DNA from: a virus
Lineage: Duplodnaviria > Heunggongvirae > Uroviricota > Caudoviricetes
IMG/VR virus record: IMGVR_UViG_2718217787_000003
DNA: 12,066 nt
Direction: 5' to 3' (one strand)
In this document: piece by piece, positions 1,379-10,064 of the stretch
How positions within the stretch are numbered: position 1 is the first letter of the stretch
How the letters are laid out: each line of letters begins with the position of its first letter
Position numbers and translations under genes: made by a program
Notes under the pieces: model-generated
What the model was told of the DNA's origin: nothing
Seen by the model: the letters and a program-made list of their open reading frames with translations, nothing else
Databases searched by the model: none

Positions 1379-1678
1379 ATGAAACTTAAATATTCTGGCT
1401 TAACTGCCAGCGGCAAAACTCGCACTAAATTCATGTGCGGGGATATTTACCGCGATAAGTACGGCGGCACGGTAATGATTAAGGGCGTGGAGGAACGGCG
1501 CGTAACCTACCATCGTGAAGGCTACGAATATGATTGCGTGATGCCTGTTTATCAGTTCCGGCGTGATTTTTCTCTGGTACAGGCAGCGCCCCGCAGTAAA
1601 CCAACCAGCAGGGAGAAAGCACGCGCCAATATTCAGGAAATAAAAAAGATGCTTAACGTATTCAGGGGTAAAAAATGA
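1379..1678 (+). CDS. Hypothetical basic protein, 99 aa, immediately upstream of and coupled to the replication gene
   Basis: ATG at 1379 with GGAG about 10 nt upstream. Its TGA stop overlaps the primase ATG (ATGA at 1675-1678). Lys/Arg-rich C-terminus. Confidence 0.5.
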   Translation: MKLKYSGLTASGKTRTKFMCGDIYRDKYGGTVMIKGVEERRVTYHREGYEYDCVMPVYQFRRDFSLVQAAPRSKPTSREKARANIQEIKKMLNVFRGKK

Positions 1679-3807
1679 AACTGGCACCGAACGTAAAAAA
1701 ACAGCCACGCGGAATAAAACACAAAGACACAGAGGTGATTATTTTCGCGGGTAGTGATGCGTGGGCACATGCAAAACAGTGGCAGGAGCAGGACGGCCCC
1801 GCATCCGGCGATAATGTGCCTCCTGTGTGGCTTGGGGAGCAGCAGTTATCAGAACTGGATAAGCTGCAAATTGTGCCGGAAGGCAGAAAATCCGTGCGCA
1901 TATTCAGGGCCGGACATCTTGCACCAGTAATGATCAAGGCGATTGGTCAAAAGCTGGCGGCGGCTGGTGTACAGGATGCAAATTTTTATCCTGAGGGTAT
2001 GCACGGTCAGAAGGTGGAGAACTGGCGCGAATATCTGGCCCGTGAGCGGCAGAATCTTTCTGATGGTCTGGTTATTGAGTTTCCGGTAAAGAAAAAAGAT
2101 ACCGGAAGCCATAGCGATGACGAATTAAAGCCACGCGTTGAAAGTCGCGCCGATGGTGTTTTCTGGGTAACGCCCAAAGTGGATAAGCAGTCAGGCGAAA
2201 TTATCCGGCCTGAGACGTGGTTATGTTCTCCGCTTGAACTACTGGGAACGGGGACGATCGGTAAAGAGCATTACCGCGTGATGCGCTGGAAAAAAACCGC
2301 AAACCATGAAGTCATCACAATGGCGATCCCGTGTGGTGGTATCGGCGACCGTGACGGCTGGCGGTTACTTAAAGATCACGGGCTGAACGTGACAACCAAC
2401 GGCAAATACAGGGCAATCCTGGCGGACTGGATGCAGTTAAGCGGAAGCCATGAGGAATGGCAGTTAAGCACAACAACGGGCTGGCATTTTGGCGCGTACA
2501 TCATGCCGGACGGTTCGATCATTGGTGAATCTGAAAAACCGATCCTGTTTACCGGAAAAAGCGCCGCGATTAACGGTTATTCCGTGGCGGGCACGGCGGA
2601 TGGCTGGCGCGACAGCGTGGCGCGGCTGGCTGGCGGTAATGCCTCAATGATACTGGGTGTGGCAACGTCACTGGCAGCGCCTTTAATTGGCCTTGTGGGT
2701 GCTGACGGCTTCGGGGTGCATCTTTTCGAACAGTCATCGGCAGGTAAGACCACCACGCAGAACATCGCATCAAGTTTATGGGGAGAGCCGGACGCGCAGC
2801 GGCTGACCTGGTACGGCACGGCGTTAGGTATTGCCAATGAGGCCGAGGCCCATAATGACGGGCTTTTACCACTGGATGAGATAGGCCAGGCCGGAAATGC
2901 GCGGGAAGTGTCAACGTCTGCTTATACGCTGTTTAACGGTTCAGGGAAATTGCAGGGGGCGAAGGATGGCGGCAACAGGGAGATCAAACACTGGCGAACG
3001 GTGGCAATCAGCACCGGAGAAATGGACGTTGAGACATTCCTCAAAAGTGAGGGGATAAAAGTTAAGGCGGGGCAGCTTGTCCGACTGCTTAACGTTCCGA
3101 TGGAAAAAGCCACGAAATTTCACGAATACAGCAACGGTAAGGAACATGCTGACGCGTTAAAGGATGCCTGGACAGCAAATCACGGGGCGGCGGGTCGTGA
3201 GTGGGTTAAATGGCTGGCAGGCCACCAGCAGGAGGCAAAGGACACGGTAAGGGAATGCCGCGAACGGTGGCGCAACCTGATACCGGAGAGTTACGGCGAG
3301 CAGGTCCACCGCGTGGGTGAACGTTTCGCCATACTGGAGGCCGCGCTTGTGCTTTCCGGTCATGTAACTGGCTGGGTCGTGCAGGAATGCCGCGACGCGA
3401 TACAGCATAACTTTAATGCCTGGGTGAAGGAGTTCGGCACGGGTAACAGGGAATTTAAACAGATGGTTGAACAGGCTGAGGCGTTTTTGTCGTCGTTTGG
3501 GTTTAGCCGCTACCTTCCGTACCCCAATACAGATGAGCGTGATTTACCGATTAAAGAGCTTGCCGGATACAGAAAAGGGAGCATTCGCAACGAAGATGAC
3601 GAGATGCGCTATTACACGTTCCCGCACGTGTTTGAGAGTGAGATAGCGAAGGGATTTAATCCGGCGCATTTTGCGCGTGCCCTGGATGCTGCCGGAATGC
3701 TGGAGAAGGGAAGCGATCGCCGATACAAAAAAAAGGCGCTGGGCAAGATTGGGGGTAAGCAGCATGTTTTTTACGTGCTGATGTTCCAGCCTGATGATGA
3801 AGATTAA
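1675..3807 (+). CDS. Replication initiator: primase-associated (DUF927-like) region plus P-loop NTPase (Pri-Rep type of satellites/PICIs), 710 aa
   Basis: A 2.1-kb ORF with SD AGGGG 7 nt upstream of ATG 1675. Walker A motif GVHLFEQSSAGKTT at aa 347-360 (nt about 2713-2754). Its position immediately upstream of an iteron array matches the primase-then-ori layout of P4-like satellites and PICIs. Domain names are from motif recognition, not a search. Confidence 0.85.
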   Translation: MKLAPNVKKQPRGIKHKDTEVIIFAGSDAWAHAKQWQEQDGPASGDNVPPVWLGEQQLSELDKLQIVPEGRKSVRIFRAGHLAPVMIKAIGQKLAAAGVQDANFYPEGMHGQKVENWREYLARERQNLSDGLVIEFPVKKKDTGSHSDDELKPRVESRADGVFWVTPKVDKQSGEIIRPETWLCSPLELLGTGTIGKEHYRVMRWKKTANHEVITMAIPCGGIGDRDGWRLLKDHGLNVTTNGKYRAILADWMQLSGSHEEWQLSTTTGWHFGAYIMPDGSIIGESEKPILFTGKSAAINGYSVAGTADGWRDSVARLAGGNASMILGVATSLAAPLIGLVGADGFGVHLFEQSSAGKTTTQNIASSLWGEPDAQRLTWYGTALGIANEAEAHNDGLLPLDEIGQAGNAREVSTSAYTLFNGSGKLQGAKDGGNREIKHWRTVAISTGEMDVETFLKSEGIKVKAGQLVRLLNVPMEKATKFHEYSNGKEHADALKDAWTANHGAAGREWVKWLAGHQQEAKDTVRECRERWRNLIPESYGEQVHRVGERFAILEAALVLSGHVTGWVVQECRDAIQHNFNAWVKEFGTGNREFKQMVEQAEAFLSSFGFSRYLPYPNTDERDLPIKELAGYRKGSIRNEDDEMRYYTFPHVFESEIAKGFNPAHFARALDAAGMLEKGSDRRYKKKALGKIGGKQHVFYVLMFQPDDED

Positions 3808-3829
3808 TCCCCTGTGTGAGGAAAAAAAT

Positions 3830-4145
3830 TGCGGGTTATGCGGGTTATCCTGTGTATAAGTGTATTAAGTGTATGAATATAAAGGAAATCAATAACCCGC
3901 ACGTAACCCGCAAAAGGGCATTTATAACCCGCAAAAGCACGATTATAACCCGCAGGCGAATAACTGAAGTAACACCGGACAGTCATGCGTAACCCGCAGA
4001 AAAAACCCCGTTTGCGGGTTATTTTGAGCGTTTTGCGGGTTACGTGGTGAGCAAATAATAAACAGGGTGTTTTGCAACATGCTGATATAAAAGGGTAAAA
4101 AATGGTTAGCACGCTAAGATAACCCAATAACCCGCATAACCCGCA
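3830..4145. repeat. Iteron-type origin of replication
   Basis: Seven direct copies of TAACCCGCA (3893-3901, 3904-3912, 3925-3933, 3946-3954, 3990-3998, 4128-4136, 4137-4145) and four inverted copies TGCGGGTTA (3830-3838, 3839-3847, 4013-4021, 4034-4042), with a degenerate copy at 4120-4127. Three GTGTAT-containing repeats with roughly 9-10 bp spacing at 3852-3880. A (TA)n AT-rich tract lies just downstream at 4153-4170. No credible ORF on the + strand here. Confidence 0.8.
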
Positions 4146-4179
4146 CATGTTTCTATATATATATAAATTGAGGTGGCAA

Positions 4180-4431
4180 ATGACCAGAACACGCAGAGAC
4201 AGAACAGAGCCGAAATATAAAGCGTTAGATATAACAGAGCTGGCCTTAAAGGTGGCAATCAGAACGATAGACCGACACGTAGGGGAAGGATACGCGAAGG
4301 AACATCCCGACCTGATAAGCGCATTCATGACCACAGCAGCGGCAAACTTTGCCACGTTGACAGAACGGGAGATTGCCGAAGCGGAACAGGTAACAACCAT
4401 CAACGTTAAAACCGGAGAGTTGAAATCATGA
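4180..4431 (+). CDS. Hypothetical protein, 83 aa
   Basis: ATG at 4180 preceded by SD GAGGTGG (4170-4176); track ORF 4147..4431 trimmed. Stop overlaps the next start (ATGA at 4428-4431). Confidence 0.55.
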   Translation: MTRTRRDRTEPKYKALDITELALKVAIRTIDRHVGEGYAKEHPDLISAFMTTAAANFATLTEREIAEAEQVTTINVKTGELKS

Positions 4432-4733
4432 GCGAACCAAAATTTGGTGAAAAACTTTACAAGCACAACGGACGGATCACGATTCAGCAAATAAGCGCAG
4501 CTACACCAGGCTGGTGGGTTGAAACAGACGAAGGATCCTCACCCGTGGCATCATGGGCGCTTTGTGTGCTTAGTTACCCTGACCGCGATGTGTATCAGGA
4601 TATTCTGCCTGTGATATCCACTGACAAAGGCATGAAACCCGTAGACATCAAAAACATGGGTTTTCAGTGCGTAATGCTCACTGAAAAAATGATGGAAGAG
4701 ATGAAAAAGAATAACGCCGGATCGCTTCACTGA
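4428..4733 (+). CDS. Hypothetical protein, 101 aa
   Basis: ATG at 4428 overlaps the upstream stop. No recognisable motif (MSEPKFGEKLYKHNGRITIQQ...). Confidence 0.55.
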   Translation: MSEPKFGEKLYKHNGRITIQQISAATPGWWVETDEGSSPVASWALCVLSYPDRDVYQDILPVISTDKGMKPVDIKNMGFQCVMLTEKMMEEMKKNNAGSLH

Positions 4734-7496: not shown

Positions 7497-8708
7497 ATGT
7501 GGCCTTTCAGAAGAAAAAAAGAGCAGCGCAGCATGACGCTTGATGAGTTTATGGCGCTGGCTGGCACATCGAACACGGGGGCGGGTGAGTACGTATCATC
7601 GGGGACAGCGGAATCACTGCCCGCCGTCATGAACGCCGTCACGGTCATCTCTGAGGCGGTGGCTACCATGCCGTGTTACCTGTACCTGGTACGCAATGAG
7701 AAGGGGAAGGAGGCCCGAGAGTGGCTTGATTCTCATCCGGTCGATCACATCCTCAACGAGCGCCCGAACGCATGGCAAACCCCCTACCAGTTTAAGCGAA
7801 TGATGATCCGCCACTGCCTGTTAAACGGTAATGCTTATGCGGTGATTCGGTGGGGGCGTGATGGTTTTCCGGTGGCTTTACATCCTTACCCGCCGCAGTC
7901 GGTGAACGTGGAGCAGACAGGTGAGCATAACTGGCGCTACTGCATCACTGACGCCTACACCGGAAACACCCGCAACTATTTACCGTGGGAGGTTCTCCAC
8001 CTTCGTTACTCCACGGATGACGGTTTTATGGGGCGCTCACCTGTAACCATCTGCCGCGAATCGCTGGGGCTTGGGCTGGCCCAACAACGCCACGGCGCGA
8101 GCGTGATGCGTGATGGCATGATGGCGGCAGGGGTTATCACGTCAGGCGAGTGGCTGGACGGCGTGAAGGGTAAACAGGCATTAGCCGCACTGGAACGCTA
8201 CAAAGGGGCCAGAAACGCCGGAAAAACGCCCATCCTTGAAGGGGGTATGAGCTATCAGCAGCTGGGCATGAGTAATCAGGATGCTGAATGGCTGGCCTCC
8301 CGTCGCTTCACCATTGAAGACATCGCCCGAATGTTCAACGTCTCGCCGATTTTTTTGCAGGAATACAGCAACAGCACCTACAGCAATTTCAGCGAGGCAA
8401 GCCGCGCATTTCTCACCATGACGATGCGCCCGTGGCTGGCGAACTTTGAGCAGCAGATAAAAAACGCCCTGCTGGTGGCCTCGCCTGTACCTGGTATCCG
8501 GTATCAGGTGGAGTTTGACAGCGCGGACCTGTTACGGGCCACACCTGGCGAACGCTTTGCCACCTATGAACGCGGCATCAAATCCGGCGTTATGTGCCCG
8601 AACGAAGCCCGCGAACGTGAAGGGCTGTCCCCGCGTGATGGTGGTGATGAGTTCAGCCAGGCATGGAAACAGGAAGTAAAAATCAGCGAGGGAGAAAAAC
8701 CGGAATGA
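7497..8708 (+). CDS. Portal protein, HK97 family, 403 aa
   Basis: ATG at 7497, 1 nt after the protease stop, with SD GGGGGTG upstream. Size and sequence character fit HK97-type portals. An alternative start at ATG 7539 is possible. Confidence 0.85.
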   Translation: MWPFRRKKEQRSMTLDEFMALAGTSNTGAGEYVSSGTAESLPAVMNAVTVISEAVATMPCYLYLVRNEKGKEAREWLDSHPVDHILNERPNAWQTPYQFKRMMIRHCLLNGNAYAVIRWGRDGFPVALHPYPPQSVNVEQTGEHNWRYCITDAYTGNTRNYLPWEVLHLRYSTDDGFMGRSPVTICRESLGLGLAQQRHGASVMRDGMMAAGVITSGEWLDGVKGKQALAALERYKGARNAGKTPILEGGMSYQQLGMSNQDAEWLASRRFTIEDIARMFNVSPIFLQEYSNSTYSNFSEASRAFLTMTMRPWLANFEQQIKNALLVASPVPGIRYQVEFDSADLLRATPGERFATYERGIKSGVMCPNEAREREGLSPRDGGDEFSQAWKQEVKISEGEKPE

Positions 8709-9043
8709 ACATAGGGCGACTGCGTGACAGGATAACGATTCAGACCCTGAAACAGACCAGGGATATAACCGGCGAAATACTCGAAACGTGGGTGGACGGT
8801 CACACACTCTGGGCAAGCGTGAACATGATCAGCAGCAAGGAGGCCATTTCATCGGGTGCAGAACTGGCGACTGGAACGGTAAGGATATGGATACGCTACA
8901 GGAAGGACATCAACGCCACCAGCCGGATAAAGGTCAATACGGGGCCGCTGGCGGGGCGTGTACTGAATATCATCGGGCAGCCGCTGCCGGATGCCGCCAG
9001 GACACGCCTTGAAATTCTTTGTCGTGAGGGCGCGGAAAAATGA
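8705..9043 (+). CDS. Head closure / head-tail joining protein (SPP1 gp16-like), 112 aa
   Basis: ATG at 8705 overlaps the portal stop (ATGA); track ORF 8663..9043 trimmed to this ATG. MNIGRLRDRITIQ...RIWIRYRKDI...LEILCRE matches the head-tail joining family pattern as I recall it. Confidence 0.75.
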   Translation: MNIGRLRDRITIQTLKQTRDITGEILETWVDGHTLWASVNMISSKEAISSGAELATGTVRIWIRYRKDINATSRIKVNTGPLAGRVLNIIGQPLPDAARTRLEILCREGAEK

Positions 9044-9336
9044 CAGAAGAACTTATCACCCTGGAAGAAGTGAAACTCCATTGCCGCATCGATGGCGACG
9101 AGGAAGACCAGTTAATCAGCGGATACATCGCCGCATCGCTTGAGGCGTGCCAGATACACATAGGCAGGCGCTTTGATGACGGGCTGGAGTTCACGCCAGC
9201 CATAAAGATTGGCTGCATGATGTTTATCGCTCACCTGTATGAAAATCGCCAGATTGTCGCGGATAACGCAAAAACACGCGTACCCATGACGATTGGTGCA
9301 CTCTGGACGGCTTACCGTGATGTGGGGGTGTACTGA
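9040..9336 (+). CDS. gp6-like head-tail connector protein, 98 aa
   Basis: ATG at 9040 overlaps the upstream stop (ATGA). N-terminus LITLEEVKLHCRIDGDEEDQLISGYIAAS is typical of gp6-like connector proteins. Confidence 0.75.
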   Translation: MTEELITLEEVKLHCRIDGDEEDQLISGYIAASLEACQIHIGRRFDDGLEFTPAIKIGCMMFIAHLYENRQIVADNAKTRVPMTIGALWTAYRDVGVY

Positions 9337-9942: not shown

Positions 9943-10064
9943 TGAGGCTGTATGACGGGGTGGGGGGCGTTTTCAGGACAAACCCGCCCCCGCCGGGCAC
10001 CGAACGCCTCCTCAAATTTTTATGCACGGGAATTTTTTGAAAAATAATCTGACGAAAAATAAAC
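9943..10064. other. Candidate packaging site (cos) region between HNH and terS
   Basis: Non-coding gap with a G-run/C-run imperfect inverted repeat, GGGGGCG (9963-9969) / CGCCCCC (9985-9991), followed by an AT-rich stretch (10015-10062). Location matches where cos lies in HNH-associated cos phages. No direct evidence of cleavage. Confidence 0.3.

Follow-up and report, generated by a model that had tools for sequence, protein, structure and literature searches.

A two-unit iteron array downstream of a DUF927 initiator gene as the predicted replication origin of a capsid-forming phage-inducible chromosomal island

The array of short repeats described here occurs in a stretch of 12,066 nucleotides from the Caudoviricetes virus record IMGVR_UViG_2718217787_000003, referred to below as the window. 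Region 3808-4170 of the window, which comprises the array of iterons and the AT-rich tracts associated with it, very probably serves a capsid-forming phage-inducible chromosomal island (cf-PICI) as its replication origin, to be bound by the DUF927 initiator encoded by the open reading frame (ORF) located immediately upstream. An origin bound by this adjacent initiator had already been proposed from an unaided reading of the DNA letters (the original prediction), and the proposal now finds support, all of it sequence-based, in the homology of the initiator, the layout common to its family, the co-variation of the iterons with the C-terminal region of the initiator, the conservation of the iterons and the presence of low-stability tracts. 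The pair formed by the 9-mer TAACCCGCA and its DUF927 initiator would thus represent a new, predicted example of the origin type known from the staphylococcal pathogenicity islands (SaPIs) and other phage-inducible chromosomal islands (PICIs), an ordinary and well-built one, which leaves the current view of how such origins work unchanged.

The 9-mer TAACCCGCA is found in 11 mismatch-free copies, seven forward and four inverted, all of them located within 3830-4145 and separated by start-to-start spacings of 9, 54, 11, 21, 21, 44, 23, 21, 94 and 9 bp. The array measures 316 bp and its first iteron lies 22 bp past the TAA stop codon (3805-3807) of ORF 1675-3807. Across the 12,066 bases of the window, no further site occurs with up to one mismatch, and a scan allowing two mismatches adds no site inside the array; the stretch 4119-4127 reads as a decayed twelfth iteron, TAACCCAAT, the equivalent of which in one relative is TAACCCGCT. 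Dinucleotide-preserving shuffles (n=200) yielded on average 2.98 sites, with a maximum of 9, and none of the 200 reached 11. A cluster of repeats produced by chance or low complexity was discarded on the basis of this non-random distribution. The probability that the region is either such a cluster or coding sequence, i.e., the 228-codon ORF 3804-4490 which does exist on the minus strand, appears virtually nil, since this ORF is broken in close relatives, unannotated and devoid of any protein family, and Rfam gives zero matches in the window. The features identified in the region are the following:

3812..3829, no strand: short motif other than an iteron, CTGTGTGAGG with an A-run behind it, separating stop codon and first iteron; conserved as judged by eye
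Starts 3830, 3839, 4013 and 4034, minus strand: inverted TAACCCGCA copies, exact matches
Starts 3893, 3904, 3925, 3946, 3990, 4128 and 4137, plus strand: forward TAACCCGCA copies, exact matches
3830..3847, minus strand: left outer tandem iteron pair with a 9-bp period, inverted; a pair also present in nearly all relatives, 21-31 bp past the stop codon
3848..3892, no strand: AT-rich gap 1, GC 0.27, candidate melting region (0.10-0.32 in the gap of relatives)
3851-3859, minus strand: perfect match to the DnaA box TTATACACA, inside gap 1 and overlapping the first GTGTAT repeat
3893..3954, plus strand: four direct iterons with start spacings of 11, 21 and 21 bp, a spacing which recurs in relatives with other iterons
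3990..3998, plus strand: fifth direct iteron, following a 35-bp spacer of ordinary GC (0.51)
4013..4042, minus strand: inner inverted iteron pair with a 21-bp spacing, forming a large inverted repeat together with 3990-3998
4043..4127, no strand: AT-rich gap 2, GC 0.38, ending in the decayed iteron
4128..4145, plus strand: right outer tandem iteron pair with a 9-bp period, direct, exact copies
4146..4170, no strand: T-rich tract and (TA)6 (4154-4165), candidate unwinding element and/or -10 region for the gene starting at 4180

The outline given by the original prediction, namely 11 copies of a 9-mer in both orientations over about 315 bp, immediately 3' of the initiator gene, is borne out by the exact count, the shuffles and the short distance from the stop codon, but one detail of it has to be corrected. 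The AT-rich tracts, which were said to flank the array, occupy its edge only in the case of the (TA)n tract, the others being mostly located between groups of copies of opposite orientation. The GTGTAT-type repeats, mentioned together with the (TA)n tract as possible unwinding elements, are indeed present in gap 1 (three times, at 3852, 3860 and 3869) but are not conserved across the family, of which only the AT-richness of the gap is characteristic. With respect to nearest-neighbour stability, 4150-4169 stands lowest among all 20-mers of the window (-16.3 kcal/mol, for a window mean of -27.5 and a standard deviation of 2.6), while 3863-3882 ranks third and 4084-4103 seventh lowest, so that this region of 340 bp contributes three of the ten 20-mers of lowest stability in the 12-kb window. 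The number of TA units differs between near-identical O157:H7 islands, with six in one and five in another (601-bp versus 599-bp matches), a variation suggestive of microsatellite slippage where the DNA of the region is least stable. Three relatives, L130, L137 and L138, possess a DnaA box with at most one mismatch at an identical offset; scans for integration host factor (IHF) sites and for GATC gave no signal. If transcribed, the inverted repeats 3990-3998 and 4013-4042 would fold into a hairpin of -29.5 kcal/mol; their interpretation as a transcription terminator was rejected, the T-run that follows them not being conserved in relatives.

The layout of the array was compared among relatives of the initiator, for which one genome per species was scanned with an alignment of these proteins, yielding 80 loci, mostly from Enterobacterales, with identities of 44-74%. 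An array follows the initiator gene in 70 of the 80 loci, in the form of an 8-mer present in 4-13 copies in the 600 bp beyond the stop codon; among the other ten, three are truncated at this place and two more possess three repeat copies. Depending on the clade, the iterons differ, and about 15 distinct sequences occur in the family, the commonest repeats being TGAACCAAC (33 loci) and TGAGACAAC (10 loci), others including TAACCCGT, TGAACCGAC, TAACCCAC, TGGGACAA, TGGGATAA, TGGTACAAC, TGACCCGAC and TGACACAC, among still more. The orientation of the copies (--+++++--++) and their spacings (9; 11, 21, 21; 23, 21; 9) are conserved across the family, as are both AT-rich gaps and the T-rich/TATATA tract at the end. 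The layout starts with the inverted tandem pair of 9-bp period, 21-31 bp past the stop codon, followed by an AT-rich gap of 45-65 bp with a GC of 0.10-0.32; its middle part consists of direct copies spaced by 11, 21 and 21 bp, a spacer of ordinary composition, one more direct copy and an inverted pair (23, 21 bp); it ends with a further AT-rich gap, a tandem pair or triplet of direct copies of 9-bp period and a TTTTGTTTATATATA-like tract, the latter being present behind the last iterons in each iteron class shown. As judged by eye, a motif resembling CA(C/T)(A/G)TG(T/C)GAGG, followed by an A-run, also recurs before the first iteron, at the position of the 3812-3829 motif, in relatives with quite different iterons. 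This canonical long form occurs in the window and in about 37 loci, and a short form reduced to the left unit is also common. The left and right units always display the same iteron and, therefore, both co-vary with the initiator.

The conservation of the iterons themselves is equally apparent at closer range. In the locus L002, the array of which is 83% identical to that of the window, all 11 copies are in place and the spacers are changed. Within the TAACCCGCA class, distinct units collected from IMG/VR (27 left and 59 right) were compared after exclusion of the iterons used for finding them: the iteron positions are conserved at 94% in the left unit and 78% in the right unit, versus 78% and 48%, respectively, for the spacers (Mann-Whitney p 7e-4 and 7e-6).

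The protein encoded upstream of the array, and the segment of it which is a candidate for the recognition of the iterons, can be delimited as follows:

1675..3807, plus strand: initiator gene, predicted to encode a 710-aa DUF927 helicase-initiator of the Pri-Rep type (Pfam DUF927, E 1.4e-48)
3580..3804, plus strand: codons 636-710, putative iteron-recognition domain (winged-helix-like), recognized by its co-variation with the iteron class

Besides DUF927, the initiator matches PHROG 1139, 'DNA primase' (E 8e-191), and a profile built from it retrieves from the PDB the staphylococcal 'Pathogenicity island protein' 8tch (E 1.4e-15) and Cch, the SCCmec helicase (5dgk, E 3.8e-5), both matches being to the core. 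The Walker A residues GKT 357-359 and the residues D401/E402 are invariant in the alignment of initiator relatives. These similarities support the assignment of the protein to the self-loading helicases related to SaPI Rep and Cch; Cch was also ranked first by Foldseek with a low-confidence full-length model, at a template-modelling (TM) score of only 0.17-0.23. Three parts can apparently be distinguished in the initiator: a swappable domain at the N-terminus (residues 1 to about 160), the ATPase/helicase core, and at the C-terminus a region which would confer specificity. The N-terminal domain, encoded by 1675-2160, is the sole part modelled with confidence (predicted local distance difference test, pLDDT, about 85), and has no match in Pfam. 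As a side observation, this N-terminus is 75-88% identical to that of initiators of the 'DNA primase family' and of the P4-alpha-like type which possess unrelated cores, and the N-termini of some DUF927 initiators that share the iterons of the window are only 37-43% identical to that of the primase-type initiator of BH100.

Co-variation between the iterons and the initiator was evaluated on 67 aligned relatives, in which pairs of sequences were scored for a shared iteron class. The area under the curve (AUC) for a shared class reaches 0.956 with residues 636-710, as compared to 0.773 with the core (190-600) and 0.637 with residues 150-189, values which call for a qualitative reading only, the counts treating related sequences as independent pairs and the AUCs overstating this independence. 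In addition, 17 of the 30 columns which best separate the iteron classes fall at residues 636-699, and among pairs matched for core identity those with a common iteron exceed the others by 0.12-0.26 in the identity of residues 601-710. A stronger argument than these statistics is provided by recombinant pairs. The initiator of L069 from E. albertii is 93% identical to that of the window in its core and 31% in its C-terminus, and its iteron is TGGGACAAG; similarly, between L095 and L113-L115 the identity falls from 97% in the core to 69% in the C-terminus, the iterons being TGAACCAAC and TGAGACAAC, respectively. Conversely, the related iterons TAACCCGCA, TAACCCGT and TAACCCAC accompany visibly related C-termini. 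A protein search with the C-terminal 151 residues gave 32 matches, mostly fragments. Taken together, these comparisons support the idea that the C-terminal region of about 75 residues sets which iteron is read.

The replication origins of SaPIs and PICIs were reportedly dealt with by Ubeda et al. in 2007. The Rep proteins of SaPIs are self-loading helicases, the C-terminal winged-helix of which reads iterons located immediately downstream of rep, and the SaPI origin consists of a central AT-rich region with at least two iterons of 5-6 bp on each side, in opposite directions (PMC9371898). The PICIs of E. coli share this organisation, and the pri-ori segment of one of them, EcCICFT073, for which plasmid maintenance and EMSA experiments were carried out, replicates a plasmid (PMC6092414). 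The array of the window resembles these origins in its position immediately 3' of the initiator gene, at 22 bp where most relatives have 21-31 bp, and in the number of its short iterons, with 11 exact copies and one decayed copy for 6-12 in SaPI/PICI origins. An AT-rich region between iterons of opposite orientation occurs twice, first between 3830/3839 (minus) and 3893-3954 (plus), then between 4013/4034 (minus) and 4128/4137 (plus). The initiator, a predicted helicase with a core homologous to the staphylococcal island protein and to Cch, and the nature of the element, a helper-induced island, complete the resemblance. Unlike those of SaPIs, the iterons of the window measure 9-10 bp instead of 5-6 bp, they form two tandem iteron/AT-rich units with a terminal T-rich/(TA)n tract instead of surrounding one central AT-rich region, and the initiator belongs to an enterobacterial DUF927 clade.

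EcCICFT073 offers an even closer parallel by its gene order, consisting of a DUF4222 gene, the initiator gene, the array, a small ORF, SSB and PerC, by its array, which possesses a tandem pair of 9-bp period, an AT-rich gap and opposite copies, and by the related N-terminal part of about 160 residues of its initiator. The core type differs, however, the initiator of EcCICFT073 being a 584-aa protein of the 'DNA primase family' and not of DUF927, and its iteron is CTGTCTACC, arrayed directly after the 584-aa initiator gene in both EcCICFT073 and BH100; sites for TAACCCGCA number zero in the 49 kb around the EcCICFT073 island.

With the satellite P4, the window shares a single multifunctional initiator of the primase/helicase/origin-binding type, exemplified by P4 alpha, and short iterons in both orientations. 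The P4 record places crr immediately 3' of the alpha gene and ori at a distance of 4.7 kb, both built of 8-bp iterons in both orientations with tandem pairs spaced by 9-10 bp, and this separation mirrors that of the 'split' relatives of the window island, which have their left unit after rep and their right unit 8-9 kb off. In contrast, similarity between the initiator of the window and P4 alpha is undetectable (BLASTP E 0.45), the type-1 iteron of P4 is TGTTCACC where that of the window is TAACCCGCA, and the two units of the window are adjacent whereas the P4 clusters, both required in cis, are kilobases apart. P4 is accordingly regarded, on sequence comparison, as an analogue and not as a relative of the origin of the window. 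In the comparison with the iterons of P4-like and PICI origins suggested by the original prediction, TGTTCACC and CTGTCTACC both differ from the iteron of the window; the layout is that published for PICI origins (PMC6092414; PMC9371898). A P4-alpha-like initiator does occur among the islands compared: L043, an island from IMG/VR, harbours, at 8850-9090 on the minus strand and directly after the initiator gene, a CTGTTCACC/GGTGAACAG array which contains the P4 type-1 repeat, and the helicase and C-terminus of its initiator are 49% identical to P4 alpha.

Iteron plasmids such as F, R6K, pPS10 and P1 also place the sites of their initiator beside an AT-rich unwinding region, with a specificity of the winged-helix type. 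Plasmid iterons are direct repeats of 17-22 bp, and the Rep_3/RepA initiators are non-helicase proteins that need DnaA and DnaB-DnaC. Unlike these plasmids, the window lacks a Pfam domain of the Rep_3 type, its 9-mers occur in both orientations and DnaA boxes are not enriched.

Three arrangements of the units are encountered in E. coli islands, the fused form of the window, a split form and the right unit alone. In the split form, rep is followed by the left unit only, and the right unit is found at the other end of the island, 85-900 bp beyond terL. The right unit alone has been located at the far end of islands with unrelated initiators and iterons of their own, e.g., BH100, L043 and L048, and the BH100 genome contains no other match to the array. 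The lone right unit was noticed near the right end of many E. coli islands, 85-900 bp beyond terL, of which some encode an unrelated initiator with iterons of its own:

L006 19938-20092; L004 2982-3136; L005 2983-3127; L043 374-529 (minus strand): right unit alone, by sequence match
L023, L026, L030, L032, L033, L046, L054 and L061: right unit alone in more islands, near the right end

Orphan units of this type consist of three TGCGGGTTA copies, an AT-rich gap, TAACCCGCT with two TAACCCGCA copies, and a TATATA tract. The proximity of the right unit to terL in many E. coli islands, where terL is 92-93% identical to that of the window, could suggest that the array, or its right half, is a cos/pac packaging site read by the small terminase of the island. 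Such a function is extremely improbable and was rejected because both units, which share their iteron, change together with the initiator across the family. In the window, moreover, the array is situated 6 kb from terS/terL. In HK97-like HNH/TerS/TerL systems, cos normally lies just upstream of terS, a position which corresponds in the window to the gap 9943-10064, where another very AT-rich stretch occurs. The orphan right units may represent a relic of module exchange, a crr-like distal cis element or a site used in trans. That the origin would be made of two self-contained, separable initiator-binding units, the right one having been displaced in many E. coli islands by about 8-9 kb to the far end and outliving there, with its TAACCCGCA sites intact, the replacement of the replication module by one with an unrelated initiator and other iterons, is considered rather unlikely. 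If the orphan units are functional, they could act as a distal cis element comparable to P4 crr or as a 'landing pad' for the DUF927 initiator of a co-resident island; in the latter case, a foreign satellite would be replicated or interfered with, resulting in cross-replication or incompatibility between phage satellites.

Some of these observations weigh against the identification of region 3808-4170 as an origin bound by the DUF927 initiator. At least the right unit can persist without its cognate initiator in cis, as is seen at the ends of the islands with unrelated initiators. The winged-helix nature of the C-terminal region is weakly backed: the Pfam family HTH_56 (the helix-turn-helix of Cch) matches the C-terminus of the initiator with 24.5 bits for a cut-off of 26.2, and is matched by only 7 of 66 relatives; a profile of the 66 C-terminal domains gives zero matches in the PDB even at E 10; and AlphaFold2 models reach a pLDDT of 49 for the whole initiator (13-row alignment) and of 48 for the last 151 residues (58 rows). 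Finally, the (TA)n tract occupies a possible promoter position for the gene starting at 4180, and its conservation need not mean unwinding.

Another interpretation regards the array as a device of transcriptional control, in which the iterons, bound by the initiator or by another regulator of the island, would essentially serve as operators for a (TA)n promoter of the downstream genes (gene 4180, SSB, PerC and capsid) instead of a replication start. Iteron-binding initiators often autoregulate, as in iteron plasmids, gene 4180 has its ribosome-binding site and start codon 10-50 bp downstream of the last iterons and of the TATATA tract, and this tract is conserved beside the last iterons in relatives. 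However, a promoter scan of 3600-4500 reveals no consensus sigma-70 promoter, the right unit and its TATATA tract are kept at island ends where no gene follows, and the short-form arrays, which lack the tract, still stand between rep and the next gene. The two-sided iteron/AT-rich layout beside a helicase-initiator is, moreover, what defines SaPI/PICI origins (PMC9371898, PMC6092414). Control as the main function is therefore held to be improbable; a regulatory role additional to that of an origin is possible.

The orphan right units would be more easily explained if the repeats were bound not by the DUF927 initiator but by a protein common to islands with and without the DUF927 core, be it DUF4222, which occurs in both kinds of islands, another island protein such as the AlpA-like regulator, or a host protein, for which the perfect DnaA box of gap 1 provides a hint. 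A binder of this sort is very unlikely. A DUF4222 homologue occurs upstream of rep in only 12 of 67 array-bearing family members (there is no such gene in the other 55), and its identity does not predict the iteron class in these 12 loci (AUC 0.51), whereas the iteron class does track the C-terminus of the initiator. Among islands with common TAACCCGCA iterons, the N-terminal domain of the initiator is 37-75% identical, and DnaA boxes show no family-wide enrichment in the arrays of initiator relatives.

Coming back to an origin bound by the DUF927 initiator, the anatomy of the array, its conservation and the co-variation of the iterons with the C-terminus of the initiator are shown by the sequences, while we infer the binding, the melting, the site of initiation and any need for both units. 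Induction of the island by a helper phage would lead to the production of the initiator, a self-loading helicase of the SaPI-Rep/Cch kind, the C-terminal domain of which would bind the iterons (a)TAACCCGCA of 9-10 bp. These iterons form two similar units, each consisting, from left to right, of inverted copies, an AT-rich gap and direct copies, and initiators bound on both sides of a gap would melt this gap, or else the (TA)n tract bordering the array on the right, and then assemble as hexameric helicases on the opened DNA. The excised circle would then be copied by the host polymerase. The origin of EcCIEDL933-type satellites would thereby be placed; in the cf-PICI literature found, helper-induced replication is shown and neither the origin nor its iterons are described (bioRxiv 10.1101/2022.09.08.507074). 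A literature search by iteron sequence returned unrelated papers only. For experimental work, the array offers a map which shows the iterons and two places where melting may occur, together with residues 636-710 of the initiator as a candidate segment for specificity. Moreover, some 15 natural initiator/iteron pairs associated with one fixed layout constitute a material to investigate how self-loading helicases read DNA, and the same pairs could be useful in the design of mutually compatible or incompatible satellites and vectors.

As to the element carrying the array, its gene content identifies the window as a cf-PICI, sibling of EcCIEDL933, i.e., Sakai Sp7. The genes succeed one another in the order DUF4222 protein, DUF927 initiator, array, two small ORFs, SSB, PerC and HK97-type capsid, and then prohead protease, portal, head closure and connector proteins, HNH, TerS and TerL. 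In E. coli O157:H7 MB41-1, which is 100% identical, the island extends over about 15 kb between the rcn genes and thiM, and also contains a tyrosine integrase, an AlpA-like helix-turn-helix regulator and Icd-like genes. It thus displays the attributes by which cf-PICIs are recognized, a size of about 10-16 kb, int, alpA and rep together with capsid and packaging genes of its own, and no tail genes. EcCIEDL933, the prototype of cf-PICIs, replicates after helper induction (bioRxiv 10.1101/2022.09.08.507074); its locus, named in the supplement of PMC6092414, is the 'prophage Sp7' of the Sakai strain, between roxA and phoQ. Sp7 (L149) possesses the initiator-array module of the window with one substitution and one TA unit fewer (tract at 8077-8088), and this same module at another insertion site designates the window as a sibling island of EcCIEDL933. 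It was also noticed that O157:H7 strains can carry two sibling islands with one and the same replication module, at roxA/phoQ (Sp7) and at rcn/thiM (window), and that MB41-1 offers two matching places for a wider query. Near the packaging genes, a very AT-rich stretch at 10031-10050 (AATTTTTTGAAAAATAATCT), which ranks fourth among the 20-mers of lowest stability, occurs just upstream of terS, at the expected position of cos.

Two ORFs adjoin or overlap the array:

4180..4431, plus strand: first gene after the origin, 83 aa, function unassigned (RefSeq CDS; PHROG 1231, E 2.9e-51)
3804..4490, minus strand: spurious reverse ORF of 228 codons, unannotated in RefSeq

A further correction to the description of the region concerns the next gene, which starts at 4180, behind a GAGGTGG ribosome-binding site; this gene, located outside the predicted origin, marks its right boundary. 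The reverse ORF has no match in Pfam or PHROG, and its frame is broken in relatives of 83-98% identity, in which the longest stop-free run covers 119-181 of 229 codons. The original prediction had rightly dismissed it as spurious, but its description as an artefact of the repeats does not hold because about 60% of the ORF is simply antisense to gene 4180-4431.

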